From an uncultured Actinomycetes bacterium (lineage in GTDB: Bacteria; Actinomycetota; Thermoleophilia; UBA2241): a stretch of 64,000 bases of DNA. The stretch covers positions 224,001 through 288,000 of the forward strand of contig CAVRZA010000011.1 in NCBI GenBank assembly GCA_963725665.1. The letters are read 5' to 3'. A model generated the notes under the pieces. That model was not told the origin of the DNA, ran no database searches, and was given only the letters and a program-made list of their open reading frames with translations. Shown here one piece after another: positions 981-42,037 of this stretch; position 1 is the first letter of the stretch, and each line of letters begins with the position of its first letter. Position numbers and translations under genes: made by a program.

Positions 981-2552
981 CTAGCGCACGGTCACGCGGA
1001 GGCGGTCGACGCCCTTGCCGCCGTGGCTGTCGACGACGGTCACCGTCACCGTGTAGGTGCGACCGCGGGTGCGCGGGAAGGCGTGGCGAAGCGTGAAGCG
1101 CTTGCCGCTCAGAGCCAGGTGGCGCTTTCCTGAGCCGTCGCCCCAGGTCACGCACGCCTTGTAGGTCTCGATACCCGGGTCGGTGAAGCTCCCGCGCCGC
1201 GCGAAGACGACGCCGGCGCGAATGCTGGCGTTCGCGCCGGCGTAGACGCGCGGCGCCCGGTTGACCACGGTGATCACCGCGCGAGCCGTGCCGTGACCGC
1301 CGTTGTCGCCACTGACCGTCACGACCACCACGTGTCGCCCGGCGCGGCGATAGCGATGCAACAGTGAGAACGTCTGGTCGGCCGCCAGGGCGAGAGGCTG
1401 GGCGCCTGCGCCGCCGCCGTAGTCGACGCTGCCGGTCCAGCTCGTCGCCCCGACCGTCTCGTCCTTGAACCAACCGGCCGGCGAGTATGTCCCTCCCTCG
1501 AGCACGCGGACGTCCGCCAGGCCACCCACTGTGAGCGCCCCGGGACGCGGCAGCGACGAGGTGTCCACGACCTCGAAGTCGGTCCCCTTCACCTGGCTCA
1601 GGGCGTGCAAGGCGTCGTCGTCCCACCTCGAGTCGGGGGCACCAGACAGGTACCAACTGCTGCCGTTGTCGGCCACCAGCATGCCGTAGGTCTTCAGCGC
1701 CTGCAGGATCACCTGGTCACAGGCCGGAAAGCCCGAGATATCGAAGCCGGCCTTGAGACGCAGACGAAGACCCATGGGCGGCAGATCGGGGTCGCTGCTG
1801 CTGCTGGCGAAGTGGGTCGCGGGGTAGACGTAGGCGCGCTGCGTCGCGTTGACGGTGAAGCGCAGGGCGTGGTCGATGACTCCTTCCTGCACCTCGTCGT
1901 AGCGCACGAGGCCGGGGAGCATCGGCAGGCCGGCGGCGTCGGCCGAGGTCCAGCCGTCGGGGCGCAGGGCGTTGGAGCCCAGGTCGAACACGGCGCCCGA
2001 GCCGGCCGTCCAGCCCTGGCCGCTGGGGTGCGCGTCGAAGAGCTCGTAGAGCAGGAGGTTGTCGGCGTCGAGGACCAGCACGTGGCGGTCGCCGCTCGCG
2101 TTTGGGCCGCCCTCGATGGGCGCGTCGGGCGGTATCGGGTAGGGGCCGGGATCGCTCTCGTCGGCGTAGTAGAAGGAGACGGGGACCTTGGGCTGCGCGG
2201 CGCCCACGACGACGTAGGGGATGCCGTTCGGAGCGCCGTTCCACACAGTGCCGAAGTCGGGATGCAGGCCGCCGGAGGATCCAATGCGGGCGATGTAGTC
2301 GGCGGAGTTGGGATCGACCGGCAGGGTATCGACGGGCGTGTTCCAGGCGTTGTCGGCGGGGAACAGGGAGAAGGGGATGGGCGCCCCGGGGCCGTACGAG
2401 GCGGCGCTCGCGGCGGCGGGCAGCGCCAGCAGCGCCGCCGCCGCGAGCGCCGCCGGCAGCAGGCGTCGCAGCCTCGCGGCCGCAGTGATCGCCGAACACC
2501 AGTGCCGTCTTCTCACACCATCCCTATCGGCGCGCCGGACCTCCCGCTTCAT
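981..2552 (-). CDS. secreted protein with a conserved N-terminal domain of unknown function and C-terminal PKD-like repeats
   Basis: Ala/Leu signal peptide (ALPAAASA); conserved block FPADNAWN..GDRHVLV..WTSADAAGLP..HALRFT; two C-terminal Ig/PKD-like units (DYGGG/TWGDG, YTVTVTVVD). Start position uncertain. Confidence 0.7.
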   Translation of the reverse strand: MKREVRRADRDGVRRRHWCSAITAAARLRRLLPAALAAAALLALPAAASAASYGPGAPIPFSLFPADNAWNTPVDTLPVDPNSADYIARIGSSGGLHPDFGTVWNGAPNGIPYVVVGAAQPKVPVSFYYADESDPGPYPIPPDAPIEGGPNASGDRHVLVLDADNLLLYELFDAHPSGQGWTAGSGAVFDLGSNALRPDGWTSADAAGLPMLPGLVRYDEVQEGVIDHALRFTVNATQRAYVYPATHFASSSSDPDLPPMGLRLRLKAGFDISGFPACDQVILQALKTYGMLVADNGSSWYLSGAPDSRWDDDALHALSQVKGTDFEVVDTSSLPRPGALTVGGLADVRVLEGGTYSPAGWFKDETVGATSWTGSVDYGGGAGAQPLALAADQTFSLLHRYRRAGRHVVVVTVSGDNGGHGTARAVITVVNRAPRVYAGANASIRAGVVFARRGSFTDPGIETYKACVTWGDGSGKRHLALSGKRFTLRHAFPRTRGRTYTVTVTVVDSHGGKGVDRLRVTVR

Positions 2553-2612
2553 CGCAACGCGTCGCCGGGGCTGGTCACAGCTCGGCGGAAGCAGGGGTAC
2601 GATACGGCGAAC

Positions 2613-3854
2613 GTGAGCGAGAACACCCGCCTTCCCATGCGCCGCTTCGCGCGCCTGCGCTCGCTCGACCGCAACGTGACGGCCCTCGGCATCGTGAGCC
2701 TGGTCGCCGACCTGAGCTCGGAGATGGTCTATCCGCTGTTCCCGGTGTTCGTCACGACGGTGCTCGGCGCGCCGGTCGCCGTGCTCGGCCTCATCGAGGG
2801 CATCGCCGAGGCGACGGCGAGCCTCACGCGCTATCCCTTCGGGCGCGCCTCCGACGAGCTCGGCCGCCGGCGTGTCTTCGTCGTCTCCGGCTACGGCCTG
2901 AGCGCCCTCGGCAAGCTGGTGCTCGCGCTCGCGGCCGGCTGGCCGGTCGCCCTCGCCGGGCGCTTCGTCGACCGCGTCGGCAAGGGCGTACGCACCGCGC
3001 CGCGCGACGCACTGCTCGCCGCCGGCGTCCCCGACGCCGACCGTGGCCTCGCCTTCGGGCTGCACCGCTCGCTCGACACACTGGGCGCGGTGCTCGGGCC
3101 GCTTGCCGCCCTGGTCCTCGTCGACCTCGGTCTGTCGATACGCAGCGTGCTGCTCGTGGCCGTCGTGCCCGGCGTCGTGAGCGTGCTGGTGATCCTCGTC
3201 GCCGTGCGCGAGCGGGCGCCGCAGGCGCCCGCTCGCGCACGGCGACGTCTGCACCTGCCGGCCTCGCCGGCCTTCCGCTGGCTGCTGGCCGCCTCGCTCG
3301 TCTTCGCCGCCGGCAACTCCAGCAACGTCTTCATCCTGCTCAGGGCCAAGACGCTGGGCTACGGAGTGACCGCGGTGATCCTCCTCTACGTGCTCTACAA
3401 CGTCACCTACGCCGGCGGCTCACTGCCGCTCGGCGGCCTCTCGGACCGCGTCGGTCAGCTCCCGGTCGTCACCGCCGGCTTCCTCGTGTTCGCCGCCGTC
3501 TATCTCGGCTTCGCCGTCGCCCAGGGCGGCTGGGCTCTGGCGCTCCTTTTCGCCGTGTACGGCCTCTACATCGCCGCCACGGAGGGGACGACCAAGGCCC
3601 TGCTCAGCCGCGCCGCTCCCGACGAAGAACGCGGCTCTGCCATGGGCCTCTACGACACCCTGGTCGGCATCGCCGGCTTCGCGGCGAGCGCGCTGGGCGG
3701 CGTCCTGTGGTCGGCCGTCGGACCCTGGGCGACCTTCGCCTACGGCGCCGCGTGCGCGCTCGCCGCCGCAGTGCTGCTTGACGGCCGGCTGGCGACGCCT
3801 CCGCGGCGGCGTCGCTTGAGGAGTCGGTGCGGCGCATCTATCATTCGAGCGTAA
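2613..3854 (+). CDS. MFS transporter
   Basis: About 12 hydrophobic segments; GRASDELGRR, DRVGKGVRTAPRDALL, GGLSDRVG motifs. Confidence 0.9.
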   Translation: MSENTRLPMRRFARLRSLDRNVTALGIVSLVADLSSEMVYPLFPVFVTTVLGAPVAVLGLIEGIAEATASLTRYPFGRASDELGRRRVFVVSGYGLSALGKLVLALAAGWPVALAGRFVDRVGKGVRTAPRDALLAAGVPDADRGLAFGLHRSLDTLGAVLGPLAALVLVDLGLSIRSVLLVAVVPGVVSVLVILVAVRERAPQAPARARRRLHLPASPAFRWLLAASLVFAAGNSSNVFILLRAKTLGYGVTAVILLYVLYNVTYAGGSLPLGGLSDRVGQLPVVTAGFLVFAAVYLGFAVAQGGWALALLFAVYGLYIAATEGTTKALLSRAAPDEERGSAMGLYDTLVGIAGFAASALGGVLWSAVGPWATFAYGAACALAAAVLLDGRLATPPRRRRLRSRCGASIIRA

Positions 3855-4124
3855 CTCAGTGACGACCAGGGTGGCCGCGATGGTCAGCTCATCTATCTCG
3901 CGCGCGCCGGCGCCCGGCTCCGCCCGGGGCGCCTTCGACACCTGGCGTCCTCACTGCCACGCCTGGACGAGCGAGCCGATCTTCCACACCTAAGACCCGC
4001 GCGTCCCCCCTTCCGCCCCTCACCGGATCAACCATCGGCCGCCGCTGACGGGCGGTGAGCGCGCACTCTCGTCGCCCCCGCAGTGCCGCTGGTGTTTTGG
4101 CCACTTTCTGACGACAAGGAGACC

Positions 4125-6143
4125 GTGGAGCTCGATCCATTCATCGATGTCGACCTGACCACCGGCGCGGTGACGAGACGCCCCGTCGATCCCGACCAGG
4201 CGCGCCTCGTGCTCGGCGGCCGCGGGCTGGTCGCGCTCGGACTGCTCGACCAGCCCGCGGCCGACCCGTTCTCGCCCGACAACCCCTTGTTGGTCTTCGC
4301 GGGGCTGCTCACCGGCACCGCCGTGCCCGCCTCGTCGCGCGTGCACATCGGTGCACGCTCGCCGTTGACCAGCCTCTCGGGCAGTTCCAACGTCGGCGGC
4401 AGGGTGGGACGGGCGCTGCGGCGCGTCGGCGCGAGCGGCATCGTCGTGCGCGGCGCGGCGCAGCGCCCGTCGTACCTCCTGCTCTCCGAGGACGAGCTGG
4501 AGATCCTGCCGGCCGGCGAGCTCTGGGGGCTCGATACGGCGAGCGCCGGTGAGCGGCTGGCCGGCTCACACCCGCGCTCTTCGGCGCTGCTGATCGGCCC
4601 GGCCGGCGAACGCCGCGCGCGCCTCGCCTGCGTGGTGACCGAGCACGGGCATGCGGCGGGGCGCACGGGCATGGGCGCCGTCATGGGGTCGAAGTTGCTC
4701 AAGGCCATCGTCGTCGTCCCGCCGCGGGCGGCCGCGGCGACCTACGGCCGCAGGAGACCTGCCGCCGTCGAGAGCGACGACGGACGAGCCAGCGCGCGAG
4801 TCTCCGGAGGAAGCGACGAAACACGGACCCGCGCGCACGGGGCCGCACAACGCTATCTCGCCAGCATCATGGCCGCACCGTCGTTCGCCGAATGGGCCAC
4901 ATGGGGCGCGACCGCCTCAGTCAAGTGGTGCAACGACGAGGGGATCCTCGCCACGCGCAACTTCGCCACCGCCGTCTTCGACGGCGCGGCCGCCACCGAC
5001 GGCACGGCTCTCGCCCCATGGCTCGCCGGCAGCCACGGCTGTCCCGGCTGTCCTGTGCGCTGCAAGGCCGAACTGCGCCTCGCCGGACGGCTCGTGGAGC
5101 GCCCCGACTTCGAGCCCCTCGTCGCCTGGGGCGCCAAGGTGGGCGTCGACGACCCCGAGGCAGTCGTGCTGCTGCACGAGCGCTGCGACCGTCTCGGCCT
5201 CGACTCCGTTTCCGCCGGTGCGGCCTGCGCCTTCGCCCTTGACCTCTTCGAGCGCGGCATCATCGACGAGTCCGACACCGGCGGCCTGGCCCTCCACTGG
5301 GGCGCGGTCGAACCCCTGGCACGGCTTGTCGAGCAGATGGGATCGGGCGAGGGGTTCGGCGGCCTTCTCGGCGACGGCGCGCTGCGCGCCGCGGCCGCCA
5401 TCGGCCGCGGCGCGGAGCGCTACGCCTACCACGTCAAGGGTCTCGAGCTGACCGCCTACGATCCCCGCGGTGCGTTTGCCACCGCCCTGGGCTACGCGGT
5501 CTCCAACCGGGGGGCGGACTTCGCCAACGTATACGCGCGGCACGAGTTCGACGTGACGCCGCAGGTGGCCGTGCGGCTCTACGGCGACGAACGCGCCGCC
5601 GAGGCGACGGTCACCGACGGCAAGGCCGAGATGGTGCAGCGCAGCATGATCGTGAGCGCCGTGCTCGATGCGCTCGGCATCTGCAAGGTCCCGGCCCTCA
5701 GCCTCATCAACGACTACGAGCTCGAGGCAGAGGCCGAGCTCGTGCGCGAGGCAGCCGGACTCGAGGTCTCGGCCGACGACCTGTGGCTCGTGGGCGAGCG
5801 CATCGTCGCCGCCGAGCGACTCTTCAACCTCGCCTGCGGGGCCGGCGCGGCCGACGACCGACTGCCGCGCCTGTTCGGCTCGCAGCCGCTCGCGGACGGA
5901 CCCGCGCGCGGCGTGACCGTCCCCATCGCCGGGATGCGCCGCGAGTTCTACCGGCGCATGGGCTGGTCGAGCGACGGCCGTCCGACCAGGGCCACGCTGC
6001 AGCGTCTGGGACTGCTGTCGCGGGCCGGTGCTACGAGTCCGCCACTGCGACGCCGCACCGGCCCACGACCCCGAGCCCAGGAGGCCGCGAAGAGGGTACC
6101 TTCCGCGCACTTCACTGACACCGTCCCCAGGAGCACGCCGTGA
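4125..6143 (+). CDS. aor: aldehyde:ferredoxin oxidoreductase family (W/Mo-pterin)
   Basis: GTG 4125 after AAGGAG; SPLT, IGPAGE, AAGRTGMGAVMGSKLLKAIVV, CPGCPVRC, CDRLGLDSVS, VKGLE, ERLFN, DDRLP. Confidence 0.88.
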   Translation: MELDPFIDVDLTTGAVTRRPVDPDQARLVLGGRGLVALGLLDQPAADPFSPDNPLLVFAGLLTGTAVPASSRVHIGARSPLTSLSGSSNVGGRVGRALRRVGASGIVVRGAAQRPSYLLLSEDELEILPAGELWGLDTASAGERLAGSHPRSSALLIGPAGERRARLACVVTEHGHAAGRTGMGAVMGSKLLKAIVVVPPRAAAATYGRRRPAAVESDDGRASARVSGGSDETRTRAHGAAQRYLASIMAAPSFAEWATWGATASVKWCNDEGILATRNFATAVFDGAAATDGTALAPWLAGSHGCPGCPVRCKAELRLAGRLVERPDFEPLVAWGAKVGVDDPEAVVLLHERCDRLGLDSVSAGAACAFALDLFERGIIDESDTGGLALHWGAVEPLARLVEQMGSGEGFGGLLGDGALRAAAAIGRGAERYAYHVKGLELTAYDPRGAFATALGYAVSNRGADFANVYARHEFDVTPQVAVRLYGDERAAEATVTDGKAEMVQRSMIVSAVLDALGICKVPALSLINDYELEAEAELVREAAGLEVSADDLWLVGERIVAAERLFNLACGAGAADDRLPRLFGSQPLADGPARGVTVPIAGMRREFYRRMGWSSDGRPTRATLQRLGLLSRAGATSPPLRRRTGPRPRAQEAAKRVPSAHFTDTVPRSTP

Positions 6144-7591
6144 CCGCATCAACCCCGCCCTCGGCCGTCGGCCGCCTCACCTTCCTCTCCGACGACGCAC
6201 GCCAGGCGATCTTCGACACCGCCGTCGACATCATCGGACGCGTTGGCATGCGTGTCCTACACCCCGAGGCGCTGGCGCTGCTGCGCGACGCCGGCGCCGA
6301 GGTCGCCGGCGCCGACCTCGCCCGCCTTCCGCGGCAGCTCGTCACCGACGCGCTCGCCGCCGTGCCGCACTCCTTCCCCGTCTACGACCGCGCTGGTGAG
6401 CCCGCCTTCGTGCTGGGTGGCTTCACGAGCGTCTTTGGCACCGGCAGCGACCTCATGCGTCTCTTCGACCTCGAGACCGGGCAGCGGCGTACCAGCGAGC
6501 TCGCCGACGTCGGGCGCGCGGCGCGGCTGTGCGACGCGCTCGACAACATCGACTTCGTCATGTCGAGCGCCTATCCGCACGAGGTCGACGCCCACCGCGC
6601 CTACGTCGAGAGCTTCCGCCAGATGGTCGCCAACACGGTCAAGCCAATCGTGGTGACGGCCGAGAACGGCGCCGACCTGCGCGTGATGTGGAAGATCGCG
6701 GCGGCGCTGCGCGGCGGCGAGGAGGAGCTGCGCGCCAAGCCCTACTTCATCATGTACGGACAGCCGTCGAGCCCCCTCGAGCACCCCTTCGACAGCCTCG
6801 AGAAGCTGCTCCTGTGCGCCGACACGGGCGTCCCGACGATCTACTCGCCGGCCCCTCTCGCCGGCGCGACGGCCCCCCTCACCGTGGCTGGCCACGTGGC
6901 GCAGGGCGTGGCCGAGTCGCTGTACGGCTTGGTGATCCACCAGCTACGCCGGCCGGGGGCGCCGTTCATTACCGGCATCGGCCCCGCCGTGCTCGACATG
7001 GCGACGGCGCAGTCCTCCTACAACGCCCCCGAGTACCTGCTGGCCTACATGGGCGCGGTCGAGATGGCGAAGTGGCTCGACATCCCCAACTGGGGCTACG
7101 CAGGGACGACCGACTCGCAACTCCTCGATGCACAAGCCGGCATGGAGATCGCCGAGCTGACGCTCCTGGCGCTGCAAGCGGGCTCCAACCTGAACCACGA
7201 CGTGGGCTATCTCGACTTCGGCATGACCGGCTCGTTCGAGCAGATCGTGCTCTCCGACGAGCTGATCGCCTTCAGCCGCCGTCTTCTGGCCGGCATCACG
7301 GTCGACGCCGATACCCTCGCCGCCGACGTGATCGCCGCGGTCGGTCCCGGAGGCCACTTCATGGGGACCAAGCACACGCGACGGCACCTGCGCGACGGCC
7401 AGTGGCGACCGACGGTGCTCAACCGCAAGGGCTACGACGCCTGGCTGGAGGAGGGCGGGCTCGACGCTCGCGAGCGCGCTCGGCGCAGGGCGCTCGAGCT
7501 GCTCGCGACCCACGAGCCCGCCCCGCTGCCCGACGGCATGCCCGCCGAGATCGACCGGCTCATCGCGGAGTTCGCCGCCGGACGAGACTAG
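6140..7591 (+). CDS. mttB: trimethylamine methyltransferase (MttB) superfamily protein, pyrrolysine-free
   Basis: SSPL, AGATAPLTVAG, AGTTDSQLLDAQAG, VGPGGHFMGTKHT motifs; no in-frame TAG; overlaps the aor stop. Confidence 0.9.
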   Translation: MTASTPPSAVGRLTFLSDDARQAIFDTAVDIIGRVGMRVLHPEALALLRDAGAEVAGADLARLPRQLVTDALAAVPHSFPVYDRAGEPAFVLGGFTSVFGTGSDLMRLFDLETGQRRTSELADVGRAARLCDALDNIDFVMSSAYPHEVDAHRAYVESFRQMVANTVKPIVVTAENGADLRVMWKIAAALRGGEEELRAKPYFIMYGQPSSPLEHPFDSLEKLLLCADTGVPTIYSPAPLAGATAPLTVAGHVAQGVAESLYGLVIHQLRRPGAPFITGIGPAVLDMATAQSSYNAPEYLLAYMGAVEMAKWLDIPNWGYAGTTDSQLLDAQAGMEIAELTLLALQAGSNLNHDVGYLDFGMTGSFEQIVLSDELIAFSRRLLAGITVDADTLAADVIAAVGPGGHFMGTKHTRRHLRDGQWRPTVLNRKGYDAWLEEGGLDARERARRRALELLATHEPAPLPDGMPAEIDRLIAEFAAGRD

Positions 7592-7914: not shown

Positions 7915-9381
7915 GTGAGCGTCGTCCTTGACGGCCTGAGCCTCACGATCGAAGACGTCGCGCGCGTCGCGCGGCACGGCGAGGCCGTATCGCCGGCGCC
8001 GCGCGCCCTCGCGCGCATGCGGCGCGCTCGCGATCTCGTGGAGGAGGCTTTACAGGAGGGGAGGTCCGTGTACGGGCTGACGACCGGGGTCGGCGCCCTC
8101 AAGCGGGCGCACATCGATCCGGCTGACGAGGTAGCCTTCAACCGCCGTCTCATCGGCACGCACCTCGTGGGCCAGGGCGCGCACGCGCCGCACGACGTCG
8201 TGCGCGCCCAGGCCCTGCGACTGGCCAACTTCTTCCTTTCCGGCGACCCCGGCGTCCGCCCCGAGCTCGCCGAGCGCCTCATCAGGCTCCTGAACGACGA
8301 CTTCCTGCCCGACGTGCACACGCTGGGCTCTCTCGGCCAGTCAGACCTCGCGCCCAACGCGGATCTCGCGCGCAGCCTGTTCGAGGGCTTCGACCCCGCC
8401 GCAGGTGAGACCCTCGCCACGCTCAACAACAACGCCTTCGCGACGGGATGGGCGGCTCTCGCCCTGGACGATGCGCGCCGCCTCGTCGACGCCGTCGAGG
8501 CCGGCGGCGCGCTAGCCCTGGAGGCCTTCGCCGCCAACCTCACCATGCTCCACCGCGCGATCGCCCGCCGGCGGCCCTACCACGGCTTGCAGACATCGCT
8601 TGATCGCCTGCGCACCCTCCTCGAGGGCAGCTTCCTGTGGCAGGAGGGGGCGGCCCGCAACCTGCAGGACCCGCTCACCTTCCGCAACCTCGTGCAGCTC
8701 CAGGGCGCCGCGCGCGACGCGCTCGACCACGCTCTGGACCAACTCGCCGTGGAGCTCAACGCCGCCCAGGGGAATCCGCTCGTCGTGCTCCGCGAGGAAC
8801 CGCACGCCGAGGCGAACGACGAGATGATCGGCCCCATCTCGGTCGGCGCCTACGACGTTCTCCCCCTGGCCGCCGCCCTCGACTACGTGCGCCTCGCCTT
8901 CGCCTCGATGCTCACCAGCGCCCACGAGCGCAGCCTCAAGCTCCTTGACACGCCCTGGTCGGGGCTGCCCACCGGCCTCGTGCCCGAGTCCGGCCCGCCC
9001 GAGAGCGGTCTCAGCCACTACGCCATCGCCGGCGAGGCGCTGGTCGCCGAAGCACGGCTGCTCGGCCACCCTGTATCGTTCGAGCTCGCCAGCTCGGCCG
9101 GCGCCGAGGGCATCGAGGACCGTGCCACGATGGCTCCACTGGCGGCGCGTCAGCTCGCCCAGCAGGTCGAACTCGGGGAGCGCGTCGCCGCCATCGGGCT
9201 CCTGGTCGCGGCGCAGGCCGTCGAGCTGCGCGGCATGACGCCGCTCGGCCGAGGCACGGTCCGCCTACTCGAGCTGGTGCGCGAGCAGGTGCCCTTCATG
9301 AGGGCCGGCGATCCCATGCCGAGCGACGTCGAGCCGCTCTTCCAGCTCGTACGCTCAGGGGCTCTCTCGGCCCTACCCTAG
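7915..9381 (+). CDS. aromatic amino acid lyase (HAL/PAL) family protein lacking the MIO-forming ASG motif
   Basis: VYGLTTGVG, LQDPLTFR, ELNAAQGNP, GLPTGL, IEDRATMA. GSLGQSDLAP replaces the canonical GSVGASGDLAP. Confidence 0.88.
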   Translation: MSVVLDGLSLTIEDVARVARHGEAVSPAPRALARMRRARDLVEEALQEGRSVYGLTTGVGALKRAHIDPADEVAFNRRLIGTHLVGQGAHAPHDVVRAQALRLANFFLSGDPGVRPELAERLIRLLNDDFLPDVHTLGSLGQSDLAPNADLARSLFEGFDPAAGETLATLNNNAFATGWAALALDDARRLVDAVEAGGALALEAFAANLTMLHRAIARRRPYHGLQTSLDRLRTLLEGSFLWQEGAARNLQDPLTFRNLVQLQGAARDALDHALDQLAVELNAAQGNPLVVLREEPHAEANDEMIGPISVGAYDVLPLAAALDYVRLAFASMLTSAHERSLKLLDTPWSGLPTGLVPESGPPESGLSHYAIAGEALVAEARLLGHPVSFELASSAGAEGIEDRATMAPLAARQLAQQVELGERVAAIGLLVAAQAVELRGMTPLGRGTVRLLELVREQVPFMRAGDPMPSDVEPLFQLVRSGALSALP

Positions 9382-9383
9382 CC

Positions 9384-9872
9384 AGCTCGGCGCCGGCCAG
9401 GGTCGGGACACCCTCTACTTCGCCGGCAGTGGGCTCCAGGTCGAGGCGCTCGACTACGCTGAGAGCGCGGTCGCGGCCGTGCGCGTCAAGGCGCGAACGG
9501 CCGGTCTTCAAGCGAACATCACGTCGCTGCAGCACGACGCGCGCGCCCTTGCCCTTCGGCGACGGGAGCTTCGACGCCTGCTACGCCCACATGCTCTTCT
9601 GCATGGCGTTCACGACCCGCGAGATCGAGGCCATCGCCGGCGAGGTCCGTCGTGTGCTGCGCCCACGCGGGCTCGTCCTCTATACAGCGCGCACCACGGC
9701 CGATCCCGACTTTGGCCGCAGCGTCGCAAGAGGCGAGGACATGTACGAGGTCGGCGGCTTCATCGTGCATTTCTTCAGTCTGGCTCAGGGATTCGAGCTC
9801 GTCGACGTGGTCGAGTTTGAAGAGGGGCCTCTCCCGCGGCGCCTGTTCAGAGTGACGATGCGCAAGGCGTAG
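9384..9872 (+). pseudogene. class I SAM-dependent methyltransferase remnant
   Basis: Motif I LGAGQGRD begins immediately after the lyase stop with no start codon; frameshift near 9548 into PLPFGDGSFDACYAHMLFC..RRVLRPRG. Confidence 0.7.
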
Positions 9873-9890
9873 AAATGGACGCGCCGGCCT

Positions 9891-10463: not shown

Positions 10464-10669
10464 CGATCCTCCTGTTCGGACCGGGCCTCGCCCAGGGCAA
10501 GGCCTCCTTCGATAGACGAGTACCTCGCCGATGGCGGCTTCGAAACCGGCAGCGCCCTTGACCACGCACCGCTACCCCATCTCATCGTTCGCCGTCCTCA
10601 GGCCGATACGTATGACACCGGCAGCGTTCACACCCGACACGGCTGGAAGAGAGGTCGCAGACGCAGACG

Positions 10670-11053: not shown

Positions 11054-11144
11054 GATCGCGAACCTGCTTCGCACGTGCGGCCGCGCGACCGTCGTCCATC
11101 GTCCGAGCCGGCGTTGCCCCACGCCTCGTTGTGTGGCGCCGCCT

Positions 11145-11220
11145 CACCCCAGCGCTGTCTCACCCCTCAGCGCCGTCTCACCCCTCAGCGCTGCCCCACC
11201 CCTCAGCGCTGCCCCACCCG
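11145..11220. repeat. 18-bp tandem repeat (about 4 copies)
   Basis: CACCCCTCAGCGCTGCCC-like units overlapping the 3' end of the ABC ATPase gene. Confidence 0.8.
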
Positions 11221-13382
11221 GCGCGCTGCAGCTCGCGCAACTCGTCGGGAGGGATGTGGCAGAGGTACCGATGGCCGCCGCCTGCATCACGCCACGGCGG
11301 CATCACGTTCACACAGATGTCGCCCAGGAAGCGGTGGCAACGCGTGTGGAAGCGGCATCCACTGGGCGGCTCAGCCAGGCTCGGCACCGGCCCGCCGAGC
11401 GGGATGCGCTCGTGGGGATGCTCAAAGTCGAGCGTGGGAATGGCCGACATGAGCGCCTCGGTATAAGGGTGCTGCGGCGGGGTGAACACATCTTCGGCCG
11501 ACCCGATCTCCATGAGCTTGGCGAGATACATGACGGCGATCCGGTCGGACAGATAGCGCACTACTGCCAGATCGTGCGAGATGAAGATGTAGGAGACACC
11601 CTCTGTCGCCTGCAGCTCCGCGAGCAGATTGAGGATGCTGGCCTGCACCGAGACGTCGAGGGCCGACGCCGGCTCGTCGCAAACGACCAGCGTCGGCCGG
11701 CCGGCGAACGCGCGCGCGATGGCGATGCGCTGCTTTTGGCCGCCCGACAGCTCGGTCGGCTTCGCCTCGAGGTGCTGCCTCTCTACCCGGACACGCTCGG
11801 CGAGCTCCTCGACGCGCTTGCGGCGCTCGTTCCCGCTCAGACCGCCGAGCCGACCGACGGCCCGGCTCAGGATCCCACCCGCCGACCACGCGGGGTTGAG
11901 CGTGGCATCGGGGTTCTGGAAGACCATCTGGATGGCGCGCAGCGTGTCGAAGCCACGCTTCGACACGCTGTCGGCCAACAGATGGTCGCGGAAGCGCAGC
12001 TCGCCGCTATCGGGAGAAAGGAGCCCGGTGACGCAGTTGGCGAGGGTGGTCTTGCCGCTGCCGGACTCGCCGACCAGACCCAGGATCTCGCCGGCGCCGA
12101 CCTCGATGCTGACGTCGTCGACCGCACCGACGCGTCGACGGCCGTCCTTGAAGACCTTCGAAAGGCCGCCGACGACCAGGGTGCTGCCGCCGGACGGCGG
12201 TCCCGCCACTGGCCCGGCGGCTGCGGCAGGCACTGCCGTTTCGGCCGACGCGCCGGCTGCCGCCGGCCGCACAGGTGCCGCCGGTCGGGCGGCCGCCGCT
12301 CTCATACTCGGCACCAGCTCCGAGAAGTAGCAGCGCGCGCGTCGCGCTGACACGTCGGTCGCACTGCTCCCGGGATCGAGCGCCGGTCCAGGCCACGCGA
12401 ACAGATCGGGCTCGCGCGCGCGGCACTCCGGCTGCACGAGCTCGCAGCGCGGCGCGAAGACGCAGCCCGGCAGCTCGCTGCCGAGCCGCGGCAGGAACCC
12501 TGGGATGGGCACCAGTGTCGACTGGTCCTTGCGCGCGCCGAAGCGCGGCACGCAGCGCAGCAGGCCCATCGTGTAGGGGTGGCGCGGGTCGGTGAACAGG
12601 TCGCGGGCCGGCCCACCTTCGACGATCCGGCCCGCGTACATCACACCGACCCGCTCGCACAGTCGCGCCACGAGGCCGAGGTTGTGGCTGATCAGAAGGA
12701 TCGCCGCGTCGATACGCTTGCGCAGCTCCTCGATGAGGTCGAGCACCTCGGCCTCGACCGTGGCGTCGAGTCCGGTCGTGGGTTCGTCGAGCACGAGCAG
12801 GCGCGGGTCGCCGGCCAGCGCCATAGCGATCACCACCCGTTGCTGCTGGCCGCCCGAGAGCTGGAACGGGTAGCGCCGTAAGACCACGCCGGGGTCGGGC
12901 ATGGCGACGCGCTCGAGCGCGCCGCGGGCGCGCTCGAGCGCGTCGCGCTTGGACAGCCCGAAGTGGAAGCGGTAGACCTCGGCGACCTGGTCGCCGACGC
13001 GGATCGACGGGTTGAGCGCGGTGGCGGGGTCCTGGTAGACCATGCCGAGCTTGGTCCCACGAAGCTCGCGCAGCCGTTCCGCGGGCAAGCTCAACATGTC
13101 GTCGCCATCGAAGGTGATACGCCCCCGGTCGACGCGCCCGTTCAGCGGCAGATAGCGCATCAGCGCCAGGGCCGTCGTCGTCTTGCCGCAACCCGACTCG
13201 CCGACCAGACCGTAGGCCTCGCCGGCACCGATCTCGAGCGACACGCCCGTCACGACCGGCAGCTCGCGGTCGCGGCGCACGAAGGTCACGTGCAGGTCGT
13301 CGATCTCGAGGACCGGGACGCCGGCCCGCCGCACGGGATCAGGAACGTCGCGCATGTGCGTCATGGCGCCGTCCCCTGTCAT
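11178..13382 (-). CDS. peptide/nickel ABC transporter, fused double ATPase (DppD-DppF-like)
   Basis: Two Walker A motifs (GESGCGKT, GESGSGKT), two LSGGQ signatures, HPYT and Cys-rich oligo_HPY C-terminal domains. Confidence 0.92.
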   Translation of the reverse strand: MTGDGAMTHMRDVPDPVRRAGVPVLEIDDLHVTFVRRDRELPVVTGVSLEIGAGEAYGLVGESGCGKTTTALALMRYLPLNGRVDRGRITFDGDDMLSLPAERLRELRGTKLGMVYQDPATALNPSIRVGDQVAEVYRFHFGLSKRDALERARGALERVAMPDPGVVLRRYPFQLSGGQQQRVVIAMALAGDPRLLVLDEPTTGLDATVEAEVLDLIEELRKRIDAAILLISHNLGLVARLCERVGVMYAGRIVEGGPARDLFTDPRHPYTMGLLRCVPRFGARKDQSTLVPIPGFLPRLGSELPGCVFAPRCELVQPECRAREPDLFAWPGPALDPGSSATDVSARRARCYFSELVPSMRAAAARPAAPVRPAAAGASAETAVPAAAAGPVAGPPSGGSTLVVGGLSKVFKDGRRRVGAVDDVSIEVGAGEILGLVGESGSGKTTLANCVTGLLSPDSGELRFRDHLLADSVSKRGFDTLRAIQMVFQNPDATLNPAWSAGGILSRAVGRLGGLSGNERRKRVEELAERVRVERQHLEAKPTELSGGQKQRIAIARAFAGRPTLVVCDEPASALDVSVQASILNLLAELQATEGVSYIFISHDLAVVRYLSDRIAVMYLAKLMEIGSAEDVFTPPQHPYTEALMSAIPTLDFEHPHERIPLGGPVPSLAEPPSGCRFHTRCHRFLGDICVNVMPPWRDAGGGHRYLCHIPPDELRELQRAGWGSAEGWGSAEG

Positions 13383-14296
13383 TCCGCCAGCGCCTTGCGC
13401 AAGCCGTCGGCCACCAGGTTCGCGCCCACAACGAGGGTGGCGAGAGCGAGTGCGGGAAACGTGACCGCCCACCACGCTACCTGGATCACTTCCTTCTGCT
13501 GCGAGATGGTCAGCCCCCAGTCGGCGGAAGGCGGCTGGACGCCAAACCCGAGGAACGACAGCGTCGCAGCGGTGAAGACCGCGTAGCCGAGTCGCACTGT
13601 GCCTTCGACGATGACCGGCGAGAGGATGTTGGGCACGATCTCCGCGGCCATGATGAAGCCGGCCCGCTCGCCCCGCAGGCGCGCGGCCTGTACGTACTCC
13701 TTCTCGCGCTCCGACACGACGGCCGCGCGGATGGTACGCGCGACCGGGGCCATGAAGAGGATGCCGATCGTCACAGTGATGGCTGCCAGAGAGTGGCCGA
13801 GGGCGGAGACGACGACGATCGCCGCGACAATGATCGGCAGGGCCAGCAGCACGTCGACGCCGCGCATCGTGACCTCGTCCGTGTACCCCTTGTAGAAGCC
13901 GGCGATCAGGCCGAGGGCTCCGCCCATGAGCAGCGCCAGGAGCGTGGCGAGCGGCGCGATGACCAGTACCGTGCGAGCCCCCGCGAGCGTGCGCGAGAGC
14001 ACGTCGCGGCCCAGGTTGTCGGTCCCGAACCAGTGCAGCGAGCTCGGCGGCTTGAGGACGTTGAAGAGGTCGGTCTCGAACGGACCCCAGCGCGTGATGT
14101 AGGTCGAGAACAGCGCCATGAAGATCCAGAAGAGAAGGATCCCGAGACCGATGAGGAACGTGGGGCTGCGCCGCAGAGCGCGAACCACGTAGCGGCGGCG
14201 GAGCTGCCGTTCCGTCGGCTCCGCGGCCAGCTCGATGGCGGCCAGGTCCTCGAAGGGACTGGGCTCGGGCAGTGGCTCGGGGGTTCGGAGGGCCAT
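13379..14296 (-). CDS. peptide ABC transporter permease (DppC-like)
   Basis: HWFGTDNLGRDV, EYVQAARLRG, LSFLGFGVQPPSADWG. Confidence 0.92.
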   Translation of the reverse strand: MALRTPEPLPEPSPFEDLAAIELAAEPTERQLRRRYVVRALRRSPTFLIGLGILLFWIFMALFSTYITRWGPFETDLFNVLKPPSSLHWFGTDNLGRDVLSRTLAGARTVLVIAPLATLLALLMGGALGLIAGFYKGYTDEVTMRGVDVLLALPIIVAAIVVVSALGHSLAAITVTIGILFMAPVARTIRAAVVSEREKEYVQAARLRGERAGFIMAAEIVPNILSPVIVEGTVRLGYAVFTAATLSFLGFGVQPPSADWGLTISQQKEVIQVAWWAVTFPALALATLVVGANLVADGLRKALAE

Positions 14297-14302
14297 CGGC
14301 CC

Positions 14303-15250
14303 CTACCGCCCGTACCTGACGCGCGGGTCGAGCAGTGCAACGATCAGGTCGGCCGCGAGGTTCGAGAACATGTAGATGGCGGCGATGACGAGCACGGTCG
14401 CCTCGAGGGTCTTGACGTCCTTGAGCGTGGCCGAGTCGATCATGAGCTTGCCGATGCCGGGGTAGCCGAAGAGCGTCTCGACGACGACGAGGCCGCCGAC
14501 CAGCCAGCCGACCTGAGTACCGATGACGGCCACTGTGGGTGCCATGGCGTTGCGCAGCGCGTGGATGAGCACGACGCGGCGTCGTGGCAGCCCCTTGAGC
14601 GTCGCCGTCCTCACGTACGGCATCTCGAGGGCCTCGATCATGCCGTACCGGGCCATCCGCGCGATGTACCCCAGCTCGACGAACATGAGCGGGATGGCGG
14701 GGAGGATCATGTAGTGGATGCGGGTCAGCGGATCGGCGCCCGCCGGCGGCGTCGCCGGGTACGGGAACCAGTGCAGCGCGACGGCGAACAGGACGATCAA
14801 CACGACGCCGCTCACGAACTCGGGCACCACAGTAAGGGACAGGCTCGTCACGGTCACGGTGCGATCGACCACCCCGTCGCGGCGCAGCGCCGCGACCACG
14901 CCTAACACGATCGACAGAGGCACGATGATCACCAGCGCGAGCGCCGCCAGTTGCAGCGAGTTCCAGAGCCGCTGCATGGTGATCGAGAAGATCGGGACCT
15001 GCAGGATGGGCGACTGACCCCAGTGCCCCGTGATGAAGCCGCCGAGCCAGTCGACGTAGCGTTGCAGGAGCGGCTTGTCGGCGCCGAGCTGGTGGTCGAG
15101 CTGGGCGACCGCCTCAGGCGAGGCGTAGGGCCCCAGGATCTCGCGGCCGATGTCGCCCGGCACGATCTCCTCCATGAGGAAGATCAGGATCGAGACGACC
15201 AGCAGCGTCGGGATGATGAACAACAGGCGGCGACCGATGAGACGAGTCAT
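14303..15250 (-). CDS. peptide ABC transporter permease (DppB-like)
   Basis: VPGD, YVRTATLKGL, HALRNA, VETLFGYPGIG. Confidence 0.92.
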   Translation of the reverse strand: MTRLIGRRLLFIIPTLLVVSILIFLMEEIVPGDIGREILGPYASPEAVAQLDHQLGADKPLLQRYVDWLGGFITGHWGQSPILQVPIFSITMQRLWNSLQLAALALVIIVPLSIVLGVVAALRRDGVVDRTVTVTSLSLTVVPEFVSGVVLIVLFAVALHWFPYPATPPAGADPLTRIHYMILPAIPLMFVELGYIARMARYGMIEALEMPYVRTATLKGLPRRRVVLIHALRNAMAPTVAVIGTQVGWLVGGLVVVETLFGYPGIGKLMIDSATLKDVKTLEATVLVIAAIYMFSNLAADLIVALLDPRVRYGR

Positions 15251-15311
15251 GTCGCCACCGTCACTGCCATGTGACGCAGGGTACCACCTATGTCGGTCGG
15301 GCGCGTCCCGG

Positions 15312-16965
15312 CTAGCTGAGGTACGTGGTCGTCAGGTCGAGGAACTCGGCCGGGTCGGAGGTGAGCCCCTGCACGTTCTTCTTCATGGCCCGGTTGACGC
15401 TGATCCAGTACGCGATGATGTACGGCGTCTCGTCGGTGAGGATCGAGGCCGCCTGCTCCGCGTACGTGCGTCGTTTCGCCTCGTCGATCGTGCCGTCGTA
15501 GTTCTTGGCGGCGGCGTCGAACTGCGGGTTCTTGAAGTGAGCCGAGTTCCAGACGCCCTTCGAAGTGCTGGTGGGTAGGAAGTACTGCGTCGGGCACGCC
15601 GCGGAAGGTCCAGTCGGTGATGCCCATGGGCACCTCGAGCCAGGGTTGATTCTTGCCGGAGCCGTACTAGTATGTGACGGTCACCTGGTTGAGGTTGAGC
15701 TTGATGCCGGCCTTGGCCGCCATCTGCTGCAGGAGCTGTGCGTACTGCGGGATCTCTTCGTACTCCTCCACGTTGAGGTTCATGGTGACGCCGTTCGGCA
15801 TGCCGGCGTCGCTCAGGAGCTGCTTGGCCTTGGCGATGTCCTGGGTGCGCTGTGGGATGTTCTTGGGCGCAAGCGGGTAGAGCGGACAGAAGACGTTGTC
15901 GTTGCCCACGATCGCCTTGCCGCTGAACAAGGCGGAGACGAGCGCTGGGCGGTCGATCGTGTAGGCGAGCGCCTGCCGCACGCGCTTGTCGGTGAACGGC
16001 GCCTTGTCGACCTGCATGTGCAAGAAGCGGCTCTGCGTCGAGGGCGTCGTGAGCACCTTGACGTTGGGGTCGGAGAAGAGGGCCTGCGCGCCCTGCACCG
16101 GCGTGACGAGCATCACGTCGACACTGCCGGACTGGAGCGCCAGCGCCTGGGCCTGGGTCTCCTCGGTGAACGTCACGTCGACGCCGTCGAGGTAGGGCCT
16201 GCCGGTCTGCCAGTAGGTGGGGTTCTTGACGAACGTGGCGCTCTGCTTGGCCACGTAGTTCGTCATCTTGAACGGGCCGGTGCCCACGGGGTTCTTCTGC
16301 CAGGTGCCGGCCTTGAAGGTCGAAGGCAGGATGAGGCAGTCGTAGTTGGTCGAGGCGACGAAGTAAGGGAAGTCGGCGAACGCTTGGTCGAGGTGGAAGG
16401 CGACCGTGGCGTCGTCGACCTTCTGCACGCCGCCCTGCGAGAGGACCCCCTGGAACGACGACAGGGCGGCCGACACCGTCTTGGGGTCGAGCAGGATGTT
16501 CATCGTCGACACCACGTCGTCGGCGCCGAACGGCTTGCCGTCCTGGAACGTGACGCCTTGGCGCAGGTTGAACGTCCACACGGTGCCGTCGGCGTTCGGT
16601 GACCATTTCTCGGCTAGCACCGGCCGCAGCGAAAGGTCGTTGTTGACCCAGATGAGGTATTCGGCGACCTGCTGCGCGATGGCGATCGAGCCCGTGTCGT
16701 ACATCGTCGTGGGATCGACGGCCACGATCGGCGACGCCATGGTGATCTTGAGCGTGCCGCCGGCCTTGGGCACCGCGGAGGCACTGGCTGACGCGCTGGT
16801 CTCAGTGGTCCCGCCGCCGCAGGCGGCCAGCAGCCGGCCGATGGCGGTGGCGGACAACCCGACCACCGTAGCCCGCACGAGGAGCTGCCGTCGTGTCATG
16901 CGCCCCTTCACCACCTCTTGAAGAAGGTGGTCGGCGTACTCTTGCTGGAACGGCGTGTCGGTCAT
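15312..16965 (-). CDS. peptide ABC substrate-binding protein (family 5, Tat lipoprotein), interrupted by an in-frame TAG and a frameshift
   Basis: RRQLL Tat motif, LAAC lipobox, WTFNLRQGVTFQDG, GTGPF. TAG at 15667-15669 (TY*YGSG) and an extra base near 15592, after which the frame continues ..WNSAHFKNPQFD..TYLS*. Confidence 0.82.
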
Positions 16966-17115
16966 GCGTGGCCCCCAGACTGTCCATCGTCCCCGTCGGC
17001 TGCCGTGGGTACCGCACGGCGCTTCGGCGCGGGACGTACCGAACCAGGTGTCCTCGGACGAGCGGAGCAGGGAGCTATCAGGTACCGTCCCGGCGACCGC
17101 CCCTCCGTGGCTCGC

Positions 17116-17144
17116 ATTGTACGCGCGGCCAAACGGTCCTACAA
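17116..17144 (-). promoter_or_regulatory. sigma70-type promoter of the ABC operon
   Basis: TTGTAG-N17-TACAAT about 150 nt upstream of the SBP start. Confidence 0.55.
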
Positions 17145-17231
17145 CGGAACGCAGGCCTGCGGACGCAGGCTCTGCGGACGCAGGCCGTTGGCGCAACGTT
17201 ACGCGGCGTCTCGCGCGAGCGACCAGCGCCG

Positions 17232-18584
17232 TCACACCGACAGCGCCGCAAGAAGCGCTCGCCTTCCCTTCTTGAACTCGTCCACTTCCGGCCAGTCGAC
17301 GCTGTCGTCGGCGTAGCGAGCCCGCTCGTAGAGCGTGACGAGGCGGGCGACGGCCCCACGCGCGAGGCCGCCGTCGCCCGCCTCCCCCGGCAGCGAGCCC
17401 AGATAGCGCCGCACGCTCCACGACGGCTCGCGCACGTATCCGTTCCTTCGCAGCGACCGTTCGAGCCGACGGTACTCCGCGCGTAGCGCCTCTGTCGGCG
17501 TCCGCGGACGGGCCCCACGCACGAGCCGTGACAGCCGATCGACCAACCTGCGGCCGGCGGCCCGCACCTCGGCCGCCGGCCGCACGAGCTGCTCGCGCTC
17601 CTCCACGGCCGTCTCGTCCTCGGTGTCGCGCTCGATCCTGAACGAGCGCAGCAGGAGACGCAGCGCCAGCATCGCGAGGACGACCAAGAAGACCAGACCG
17701 AGGACCTCGGGCACCGCAGACCGTGGGTGCGCCTGCGGCTGCTTGATGATCCTGAAAGCCGTCGTCGACGGCGGCCGCATCTCCGGCAGGTGCGGGTGCA
17801 GGTTGAAGACGCTGGCGAGGGAGGCAAGCCCGCGTAGGACGAGATAGCCGACGGCGGCGATGACGTAGCCGACAGCGTCCAGCAGCCCGTGAAGCGCCAC
17901 CAGCACGAGCCCGCCCAGCCACGCCAACGGTCCTCCCGCCGGAACGGCCGCGACGAGCGCGGCCAGCGCCAGGGCGAACAGGCCGGCGGCCACGACGCCC
18001 GCGGTCCAGCGCCAGACCGAACGGCCGCCCTCGATGGCGCGCAGTGTCACCAGCGCACGCGCGACAGCGATCAGCGCGAGCCCGGCGAGGACCACGAGAG
18101 CGACGATAATCCCCGACCCGGCCAGAGGCTCCCGGGCGCCGTACGAGACGAGCACAAGGGCGAAGATGAGGACGAAGGCGCGCACCGCGCGCCTGAACGC
18201 CCGCTCGGGATCGATCTCGGCGCGACCGGCGAGCAGGCCGAGCTCCAGCGACACACCAATGAAGACAGTGCTGCGCACGACCACGGCCACTACTTGCCCC
18301 AGCCCCTGCGGCGACGCGACGGCGATCAGGGCGGCGGCGGCGGCAAAGCCCAGGGCGAGCAGCAGCAGGCGGTAGGGCAGCGGCGCGGGCGCGGTGCCCA
18401 CGGCGCCGCCGGCGCCGCGTGCCGCCGCCGCCAGTAGCGCCGCGCCCGCCACGACCGACCAGCAGACCAGGATGACGGGCGCCGGCGGCGCTGCCACGAG
18501 CAGCGCCGCCAGCGCCCCCAACCACAGCGCCTCAAGGAACGTCGCCAGGAACAGGCGGACGAGGTCAGGCCAGCGGGAGCTCAT
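17232..18584 (-). CDS. DUF4129-type membrane protein
   Basis: Multi-TM N-terminus; C-terminal YRRL..LVTLYERARY motif; lies downstream of DUF58/MoxR. Confidence 0.7.
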   Translation of the reverse strand: MSSRWPDLVRLFLATFLEALWLGALAALLVAAPPAPVILVCWSVVAGAALLAAAARGAGGAVGTAPAPLPYRLLLLALGFAAAAALIAVASPQGLGQVVAVVVRSTVFIGVSLELGLLAGRAEIDPERAFRRAVRAFVLIFALVLVSYGAREPLAGSGIIVALVVLAGLALIAVARALVTLRAIEGGRSVWRWTAGVVAAGLFALALAALVAAVPAGGPLAWLGGLVLVALHGLLDAVGYVIAAVGYLVLRGLASLASVFNLHPHLPEMRPPSTTAFRIIKQPQAHPRSAVPEVLGLVFLVVLAMLALRLLLRSFRIERDTEDETAVEEREQLVRPAAEVRAAGRRLVDRLSRLVRGARPRTPTEALRAEYRRLERSLRRNGYVREPSWSVRRYLGSLPGEAGDGGLARGAVARLVTLYERARYADDSVDWPEVDEFKKGRRALLAALSV

Positions 18585-41091: not shown

Positions 41092-41299
41092 GCAGACGGG
41101 GCGCTCGCAAAGAGTACCCCGAGCGGAGAGGGGGTGAGGGCCACCCAGGGCATCCACCGCACGTCCACGTGGTCTCGGCTGGCTGAGTGCGACCGGGAGC
41201 GGTCGCCAAAGCGACGTCGGCACGGGCAGATCGCCCACCGGCAGTCTCCAGGCGGCGACCGCGTTTCATCGGCAGGCGTCAGATGGAGGTGTCGTCGCA

Positions 41300-41938: not shown

Positions 41939-42037
41939 CGCGGCCGTTTCGGCCGTTGATGCGACGACCGGATGTCCACGCCGCGCGCGCTGAGGCGGGC
42001 ACCATCCGGCATCAGCACTGATGGGAGGAGCAACGAA

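Follow-up and report, generated by a model that had tools for sequence, protein, structure and literature searches.

The 64,000-nucleotide stretch of DNA analysed here (the window; C11:224001-288000 of a 3.73 Mb assembly in 12 contigs from an uncultured Actinomycetes bacterium of the Thermoleophilia) carries a gene, P0001 (7915-9381, + strand), whose product belongs to the histidine ammonia-lyase (HAL) family and is missing the residues that form the 4-methylideneimidazole-5-one (MIO) cofactor. Judged by these residues, P0001 cannot form MIO and belongs with the MIO-less lyases, not with HutH. We tentatively read it as a cytoplasmic trimethylammonia-lyase for a histidine-derived betaine, hercynine or a close derivative, an assignment towards which we lean without holding it firmly; substrate, product and direction of flux are proposed from sequence features, family placement, gene neighbourhoods and the genome inventory. 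In this proposal P0001 would remove the fully methylated α-amino group of histidine betaine (hercynine), or of a close derivative, as trimethylamine (TMA), with Tyr53 abstracting the β-proton and urocanate as the product. The organism's own HutU, HutI and FtcD would carry urocanate on to glutamate, and pyrrolysine (Pyl)-containing MttB and MtbB proteins would harvest the released methylamine. The lyase gene itself would form part of a betaine-utilisation island, together with a non-pyrrolysine MttB and an ATP-binding cassette (ABC) importer.

The lyase gene and its relevant residues are:

7915..9381, + strand: lyase P0001, MIO-less HAL family; 488 amino acids, GTG start, open reading frame (ORF) without internal stops
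8071..8103, + strand: catalytic loop, from Tyr53 (8071-8073) to Lys63 (8101-8103); VYGLTTGVG is residues 52-60
8161..8163, + strand: His83, aligned with His83 of P. putida HAL, which binds imidazole; role as given in the available text of 10.1101/2025.08.13.670108
8326..8355, + strand: former MIO site GSLG-QS-DLAP, residues 138-147; codons ggc tct ctc ggc cag tca gac ctc gcg ccc
8665..8685, + strand: QDPLTFR, in which Gln251 and Arg257 are predicted by alignment to bind carboxylate and Leu254 stands in place of HAL Tyr280
9025..9027, + strand: Ile371, opposite Lys384 in the HMMER alignment, the residue with which T. denticola ergothionase binds ergothioneine
9115..9120, + strand: Glu401-Asp402 in IEDR, with the Glu at the imidazole-binding Glu414 position of HAL by alignment

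The original prediction, which was made from the letters of the window, held that the MIO-forming tripeptide had given way to a dipeptide with no frameshift. Gln142-Ser143 (8338-8343) indeed take the place of Ala-Ser-Gly (ASG) in frame, and when P0001 was aligned by BLASTP to the HutH encoded in its own genome, P0273, the two read GSLGQS-DLAP and GSLGASGDLAP, with a one-residue gap in an otherwise continuous alignment. The intact ORF and this alignment together bear the claim out. The position given for the motif, about 8323-8355, was right at its end and off at its start, as the motif spans 8326-8355. The VYGLTTGVG loop had also been said to be kept, with a Lys ten residues after the Tyr, and the translation places both as described, at Tyr53 and Lys63.

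In Pfam, P0001 matches the aromatic amino acid lyase family PF00221 (E = 5e-97). It falls under all curated NCBIfam cut-offs, including that of hutH (TIGR01225; 271.4 bits versus the 539.15 needed), and has neither the ASG triad nor Tyr280 in a QDAYxxR motif. An automatic hutH call, against which the original prediction had cautioned, would therefore be wrong, given the score of 271 against 539 bits, the missing ASG, the missing Tyr280 equivalent and a separate true HutH in the genome. JGI labels many P0001 homologues "histidine ammonia-lyase", so the caution was justified. For structural comparison, a model was built with AlphaFold on an alignment, A1, of 124 of 273 proteins (P0001, a one-in-three sample of the full-length close hits, the full-length representatives of 50% clusters and two paralogues from its own genome). 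The model (predicted local distance difference test, pLDDT, 95.8; predicted template modelling score, pTM, 0.95) matched the structures of HAL, tyrosine aminomutase (TAM) and ergothionase with template modelling (TM) scores of 0.86-0.90, as expected of a HAL/phenylalanine ammonia-lyase fold. Foldseek ranked ergothionase 6s7j first (E = 1.2e-30, TM 0.89), followed by TAM and HAL. A sequence search of the PDB likewise placed 6s7j (2.3e-43) narrowly before HAL 7tqr (6e-42), and a profile made from A1 ranked them alike, again with 6s7j first (2.8e-147).

The shortened MIO site is not peculiar to P0001. A word-indexed search scored 8000 candidates and identified 3887 of them as homologues, led by hits 90-91% identical to P0001 and then a broad band at 56-64%; the family numbers 668 representatives at E ≤ 1e-30. 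In an alignment of P0001 and its top 120 homologues, the motif window read G-x-x-D in each of its 15 most frequent variants, which together cover 64 of the 121 sequences. ASG was absent from 39 of 39 close homologues in A1, which settles the question, raised by the original prediction, of whether the deletion is unique to this assembly; of the 82 more distant representatives of 50% clusters, just 13 have ASG or SSG. An assembly artefact was thus ruled out, since the shortening runs through the whole family. We then compared 107 MIO-less and 15 MIO rows in a set of 122 that we selected ourselves and that is not random. The segment from Gly141 to Asp144 is four residues long in all 107 MIO-less rows and five in all 15 MIO rows. 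The column of HAL Tyr280 holds Tyr in 15/15 MIO rows and Leu in 93/107 MIO-less rows, and Lys at Tyr+10 occurs in 81/107 MIO-less rows (Arg in 10) versus 1/15 MIO rows. The catalytic Tyr is invariant in A1, and Tyr, Gln, Arg, Asn and Glu are almost invariant in the rows compared.

In a FastTree phylogeny of the 122 rows, all 107 MIO-less rows fell on one side of a branch, with SH-like support of just 78. P0001 lies in a 12-row clade (support 96) inside an 85-row clade (support 96). The ergothionase-like clade, which carries a "QKT" motif, stands apart from this 85-row clade; one of the ergothionase-like sequences, P0252, matches 6s7j at 594 bits and is 31% identical to P0001. The Shewanella enzymes Swoo_3913, SO_3057 and SO_3299 are not among the rows of the tree. 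In the literature as searched, no enzyme of the 85-row clade was found to have been characterised, and a metagenome scan returned mostly 50-55% identical homologues of other clades and no more members of P0001's own. The P0001 homologues that bear names derive from metagenome-assembled genomes of Thermoleophilia.

According to the available text of two preprints (10.64898/2026.04.22.720169; 10.1101/2025.08.13.670108), the key residues of the MIO-less enzymes and HAL are a β-proton-accepting Tyr, the carboxylate ligands Gln, Arg and Asn, and the imidazole ligands His and Glu. P0001 retains Tyr53, His83, Gln251, Arg257, Asn282, Asn287 and Glu401, and so has lost the MIO triad but kept the catalytic Tyr and its Gln/Arg/Asn carboxylate ligands. 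The accessible portion of one preprint also describes Lys384 of ergothionase as binding the thiolate and as essential, its loss abolishing activity (10.64898/2026.04.22.720169). In the HMMER alignment, whose printed chain index is one below the paper's numbering, P0001 has Ile371 and no Lys at this position, which makes ergothioneine an unlikely substrate. The original prediction had proposed elimination of a methylated amine from a betaine such as hercynine or ergothioneine; the class fits, given the top match to 6s7j and the MIO-less family, and ergothioneine drops out on account of Ile371. On residue grounds, an Ile is what a substrate without sulfur would lead one to expect here, and histidine betaine, which has none, is plausible. 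By its sequence, P0001 is predicted to be cytoplasmic: its alignment with cytoplasmic enzymes begins at residue 3, and there is no N-terminal extension.

The genes around P0001 in the window are:

1605..3854, + strand: major facilitator superfamily transporter, start uncertain (PF07690, E = 7e-43)
4083..6143, + strand: aldehyde:ferredoxin oxidoreductase (AFOR) family, tungsten-type (PF01314, PF02730); overlaps the start of the MttB gene by 4 bases
6140..7591, + strand: MttB-superfamily methyltransferase, non-pyrrolysine (PF06253, E = 2e-87); no in-frame stop
11178..17400, - strand: Opp/Dpp-type ABC importer, convergent with the lyase gene (Pfam)
11178..13475, - strand: fused ATPases of the importer
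13379..14296 and 14303..15250, - strand: permeases of the importer
from 15667, - strand: family-5 binding protein of the importer

The PF06253 gene immediately upstream of the lyase gene is the MttB neighbour named in the original prediction. It scores 355.7 bits against TIGR02369 (cut-off 525) and has no in-frame TAG, and therefore does not qualify as a Pyl-dependent TMA methyltransferase. Its best PDB matches are to the glycine betaine methyltransferase MtgB (9yce/2qne, 3e-60), ahead of the TMA methyltransferase MttB (7xcl, 8e-50). MtgB likewise has no in-frame TAG, but it is distant (208 bits), and by our reading of the alignment its cation-π residue Tyr97 lies opposite a Ser in the window MttB. 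Non-pyrrolysine members of the MttB superfamily (MtgB, MtcB, MtpB and MtyB) demethylate quaternary amines. The window MttB is therefore expected to use a quaternary amine, not the TMA that the lyase would release.

As the genome has 31 MttB matches, which by our estimate put ~7% of its positions no more than 3 kb from one, adjacency in the window alone is weak evidence. We searched 40 relatives, taking ~20 kb round each homologue, and found a lyase homologue at E ≤ 1e-60 in 13. The homologues of seven relatives are 59-62% identical to P0001 in the tblastn of these loci (60-64% in the initial search of the relatives) and fall in its clade, and in six of these seven (L037-L041 and L048) an orthologous MttB (63-69% identity) lies just upstream of the lyase gene. 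Other MttB paralogues are just ~30-40% identical to the window MttB, and five such paralogues flank the lyase gene at the seventh locus (L036). A chance neighbourhood is ruled out only by this synteny in six of seven loci; the link between lyase and MttB is conserved. The MttB does not depend on the lyase in turn, since 17 of the 40 relatives carry a member of the window-MttB subfamily (55-68% identity), and seven of these gave no lyase match.

All six syntenic loci also carry, between the MttB and lyase genes, a gene for a 369-amino-acid Cys-rich protein with a C-terminal 2x[4Fe-4S] ferredoxin domain. This protein (L039 3838-4947, with equivalents in L037, L038, L040, L041 and L048) has CxC and CxCCxxCC motifs, and its first 300 residues have no family match. 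Its gene is absent from the 324-base gap between MttB and lyase in the window, and homologues are found elsewhere in the genome. At the L038 locus (relative G015) the MttB gene has an in-frame TGA and the intervening Fe-S protein gene matches as three serial pieces, disruptions that could be pseudogenes or assembly errors. Opp-type permeases 60-81% identical to those of the window (13379-15250) lie near the lyase gene in L036, L038, L039 and L048. The AFOR gene adjoins MttB in the relative G003 (L037) as well, and not in the other five syntenic loci. Genome-wide, the AFOR family gives 11 tblastn hits of more than 150 amino acids, including one on C6 at ~6 kb downstream from pylS.

Across the wider family, the lyase genes lie among genes for handling betaines, and in two cases these include a genuine urocanase. 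We examined 17 loci from species genomes, 13 from relatives and 80 from metagenomes, plus the window, using Pfam and NCBIfam on ORFs together with tblastn with reference neighbours; the counts are descriptive, with no statistical test, as the loci are interrelated and some are near-duplicates. The clearest case is an operon in a genome of the same family (L045 in G014), which runs on a single strand through an MttB (12782-14224), a corrinoid protein (12129-12752), a urocanase (10433-12124) and an MIO-less lyase (8957-10429), with gaps of 29, 4 and 3 bases. Its lyase is 53% identical to P0001, and its urocanase is a hutU (951 bits; cut-off 375); a role of such neighbouring urocanases as thiourocanate or S-methyl-thiourocanate hydratase was rejected, as they score below those NCBIfam cut-offs. 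G014 carries a second hutU near an ordinary hutH. In a second clade (L016, L111 and L119), hutU accompanies the lyase together with a PF02574 gene (homocysteine/betaine S-methyltransferase family). OpuAC-type betaine ABC transporter genes occur with an IclR regulator in L005, L013, L058 and L062, and immediately upstream of the lyase gene in a Chloroflexota clade. An MttB of a different subfamily stands beside the lyase gene with an OYE/FadH-type flavoenzyme in L002 and alone in L059, L063 and L131. L017 and L066 combine a Rieske oxygenase (best match GbcA), a DAO-type oxidase and an MttB, and MR/MLE-superfamily genes occur in L001, L015 and L119-L121.

An MttB, PF02574 or Rieske gene lies within 3 kb in 58 of the 110 loci with a tblastn lyase match. 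Where at least 2 kb was available on both sides, such betaine-type demethylase genes are found at this distance in 33 of 47 loci (MttB 15, PF02574 18, Rieske 2); of the remaining 14, six have only tandem lyase paralogues within 3 kb (some with PF02574 just past it), and an OpuAC transporter is present in three. Between lyase clades, the MttBs that adjoin the lyase share just 26-30% identity (43% in one pair), as distant as unlinked paralogues, which points to repeated recruitment and not to mere inheritance of one pair. A full-text literature search, with most subscription journals outside it, returned no report of an MttB (or corrinoid methyltransferase) paired with a HAL-family lyase, and no paper on S-methyl thiourocanate or on a hydratase linked to S-methyl ergothioneine. 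In Streptosporangiaceae-type loci (L008 5531-8431; L009, L011, L014, L097, L103 and L110), two tandem PF00221 paralogues follow the lyase gene. In one of these, lyase2 (four tree rows), the QD..R and ED motifs are gone (VGAGEV, AAPASYR, QDDVS), and its branch in the tree is very long; from their motifs, these tandem paralogues may be non-catalytic partners.

The genome itself could receive both proposed products. It holds three PF00221 genes: P0001, P0273 on C8 and P0272 on C4. P0273 is a true HutH (668 bits; cut-off 539) and lies beside HutI (455; cut-off 298) and FtcD (348; cut-off 221). The single urocanase-family gene is a true HutU (937 bits versus 375), which falls under the cut-offs for thiourocanate hydratase (680 versus 930) and S-methyl-thiourocanate hydratase (736 versus 880). 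With HutU, HutI and FtcD present, urocanate made by P0001 would have a complete route to glutamate, and since the genome has a separate HutH beside them, P0001 would be an extra feeder enzyme and not the pathway's own lyase. For the released amine, the genome encodes PylS (C6:296347-297081, 314 bits; cut-off 178) and PylD (C6:343844-344635, 212 bits; cut-off 150); ARAGORN and Rfam detected no tRNA in the 15 kb surrounding pylS. Six of the 31 PF06253 matches have one in-frame TAG (on C1, C2 and C4) and ~23 MttB paralogues have no stop at all, while eight of nine PF09505 (MtbB) matches have one in-frame TAG (on C1, C2, C3 and C4); the ninth is just the short C-terminal piece left of a split gene. 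By this gene content the organism reads pyrrolysine and can consume tri- and dimethylamine, so either amine, if released, would be consumable.

P0272, which also lies beside an MttB, was considered as a second MIO-less lyase and rejected on its intact GASGD. It (region C4:213919-217898; locus L049 7812-11950) scores 483 bits against the hutH cut-off of 539, and its C-terminus looks cut short. A non-Pyl MttB lies 1.2 kb upstream of it, beyond a DUF72 gene, and it is followed by an SBP_bac_3 ABC transporter and a corrinoid protein. Paralogues of this type recur in relatives, and G008 has one at a distance of ~6 kb from its best window-MttB orthologue.

Our reading of P0001 as a trimethylammonia-lyase for a histidine betaine draws on the loss of MIO and Tyr280, the top match to 6s7j and the retained ligand positions of HAL and the betaine lyases, together with the L045 operon and its true hutU, the hutU of the second clade, the OpuAC transporters and the Pyl machinery. 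Several points weigh against it. The characterised enzymes are, in sequence comparisons, just ~26-31% identical to P0001, and none was found in its own clade. At the Lys384 position P0001 has Ile, but Swoo_3913 has Asn and SO_3299 Gln. No urocanase gene is adjacent in the eight loci examined from its own 12-row clade (the window, L036-L041 and L048), and hutU is common regardless of the lyase (12 of 13 relatives with it versus 16 of 27 without), a profile that is too weak and not independent. The L045 clade, which has the strongest urocanase link, carries Ser and not His at position 83, so His83 is no dependable marker of an imidazole substrate; together with the helix round position 371 (SHYAIA), which differs among clades, this leaves the substrate unfixed by the residue pattern. 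The window MttB, moreover, would not be expected to use TMA, and if both enzymes took the same quaternary betaine they would compete, the betaine serving as methyl donor for one or as carbon and nitrogen source through the other, unless the MttB acts elsewhere.

Some of these points would be met by a trimethylammonia-lyase for a non-histidine betaine (e.g. of Trp, Tyr or Phe) or for a ring-substituted histidine betaine, to which we give a limited chance. It would suit the lack of an adjacent hutU in P0001's own clade and a 371 helix that varies as specificity determinants would, as well as neighbours that comprise Opp peptide-type transport, peptidases in L037 and no hut genes; SO_3299, by the portion of its description available, tells close substrate variants apart (10.64898/2026.04.22.720169). 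The HAL imidazole ligands His83 and Glu401 are nevertheless kept, and since the sole urocanase-family gene is a true hutU, a modified urocanate would be left without a dedicated hydratase. Similarly doubtful is a sequential module, in which MttB (elsewhere PF02574 or Rieske) strips one methyl group and the lyase then eliminates dimethylamine from an Nα,Nα-dimethyl amino acid. The demethylase genes within 3 kb in 33 of 47 loci, an MttB pairing that is not just inherited synteny, and the eight TAG-bearing MtbB genes that could take dimethylamine all argue for it, as does the L045 operon, which unites MttB, corrinoid protein, hutU and lyase; given known MttB chemistry, only this order employs all four on one imported substrate. 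However, the related MIO-deficient lyases are all said to require the trimethylamino group strongly, in the discussion of the preprint as available (10.64898/2026.04.22.720169), a tertiary ammonium has an acidic N-H and would by our reasoning be poorer for MIO-free base-catalysed elimination, and the MttB subfamily is present in seven relatives with no detected lyase. More broadly, lyase and betaine methyltransferase could form a recurrent module recruited independently several times (three MttB subfamilies, BHMT-like PF02574, Rieske), in which the lyase eliminates dimethylamine or Pyl-free methyltransferases use the released TMA. We think this improbable; if true, a dimethylammonia-lyase would be new chemistry for the HAL fold, and Pyl-free use of released TMA would likewise be new. 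That P0001 is itself an ergothionase, converting ergothioneine to thiourocanate and TMA, is very improbable. Ergothionase is its best PDB match and shares a two-residue MIO replacement, QDPL(S/T)FR and Lys at Tyr+10, but Ile371 occupies the position of Lys384, whose loss abolishes ergothionase activity in the preprint text available (10.64898/2026.04.22.720169), the ergothionase-like P0252 lies in a separate clade at 31% identity, and the genome has no thiourocanate hydratase, its sole urocanase reaching 680 of 930 bits. We put equally little weight on a degenerate HutH copy or non-catalytic HAL-fold protein: the cofactor triad is gone and JGI names homologues "histidine ammonia-lyase", but the 668 representatives, near-invariant catalytic residues, intact frame, pLDDT of 95.8, conserved synteny and true HutH elsewhere all speak against decay.

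Other parts of the window hold further genes of related families. The ORF at 9429-9872 (+ strand), downstream of the lyase gene, was considered as an MduS-like selenoprotein and rejected, as reading its TGA as selenocysteine gives no convincing extension; it matches just positions 94-214 of the 338 in MduS NF045649 (135 bits versus 380) and is probably a gene fragment corresponding to the C-terminal methyltransferase part. Four further regions, at 41138-43420 (+ strand) and at 53489-56671, 58273-59757 and 62204-64000 (- strand), encode a corrinoid protein followed by a stop-free MtmB homologue, a RACo/RamA-like corrinoid activase beside a lysine-2,3-aminomutase-like radical SAM gene, and two further MttB paralogues. 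At 49938-51385 (- strand), two overlapping ORFs in different frames match the N-terminal (positions 9-131) and middle (205-335) parts of a class-III aminotransferase profile, suggesting a frameshift or pseudogene.

MIO-less lyases of the HAL fold are a recently recognised source of TMA. Characterised members mentioned in the available text of two preprints are only ergothionases and two Shewanella enzymes, Swoo_3913 and SO_3299 (10.64898/2026.04.22.720169; 10.1101/2025.08.13.670108). The enzyme class is thus known from very recent work, and the clade of P0001 adds a new, large and uncharacterised branch in a new setting: cytoplasmic, paired with betaine demethylases and in a pyrrolysine-using soil actinobacterium. 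Its members come mainly from soil Actinomycetota and Chloroflexota and are routinely called "histidine ammonia-lyase". Their systematic pairing with quaternary-amine demethylases points to a widespread degradation route for histidine betaine or related amino-acid betaines, which in this organism would feed pyrrolysine-based methylamine metabolism. The P0001 locus also offers a concrete case for the order of methyl harvesting and C-N elimination on one betaine.

Among known enzymes, HutH (TIGR01225; P. putida 1b8f; P0273) shares with P0001 the fold and the equivalents of Tyr53, His83, Gln, Arg, Asn and Glu, P0273 being 32% identical over its full length, and differs in having Ala-Ser-Gly and Tyr280, both of which are missing in P0001. 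T. denticola ergothionase (6s7j/6s7q) is, like P0001, an MIO-free enzyme of the HAL fold in which two residues (EG, versus QS in P0001) replace Ala-Ser-Gly. It shares the catalytic Tyr, Lys at Tyr+10, QDPL(S/T)FR and the Glu-Asp motif, and the HMMER alignment sets its SIG-EG-DI opposite SLG-QS-DL of P0001 at equal length. The two are nonetheless only ~26% identical in the fold alignment and belong to separate clades of the tree; Lys384 stands against Ile371 and IEDH against the IEDR of P0001, which is also short of ~20 residues after the MIO-site helix.

The Shewanella enzymes provide the remaining comparisons, all taken from the text available in the two preprints. SO_3057 (an ergothionase) and SO_3299 (an N(π)-methyl histidine betaine lyase) of Shewanella oneidensis illustrate that MIO-less lyases tell related histidine betaines apart by a few pocket residues; they differ from P0001 in being periplasmic and encoded in flavocytochrome c operons, and SO_3299 has Gln434 at the 384 position (10.64898/2026.04.22.720169). 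Swoo_3913, the histidine betaine trimethylammonia-lyase of Shewanella woodyi, is like P0001 MIO-less and without a Lys at the 384 position (Asn439, versus Ile371), and has the same Tyr/His/Gln/Arg/Asn/Glu ligands; the corresponding spacings differ, being Tyr77-His117 and Asn439-Glu467 in Swoo_3913 (10.1101/2025.08.13.670108) and 53-83 and 371-401 in P0001. It also differs in being periplasmic and in being paired with a urocanate reductase for anaerobic respiration (10.1101/2025.08.13.670108), whereas P0001 is paired with MttB and an importer. The neighbours of P0001 (AFOR, MttB and an ABC importer) accordingly do not form the periplasmic urocanate reductase or flavocytochrome c setting of the Shewanella type. 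By analogy with these lyases, a urocanate-forming reaction would be the likeliest chemistry for P0001.

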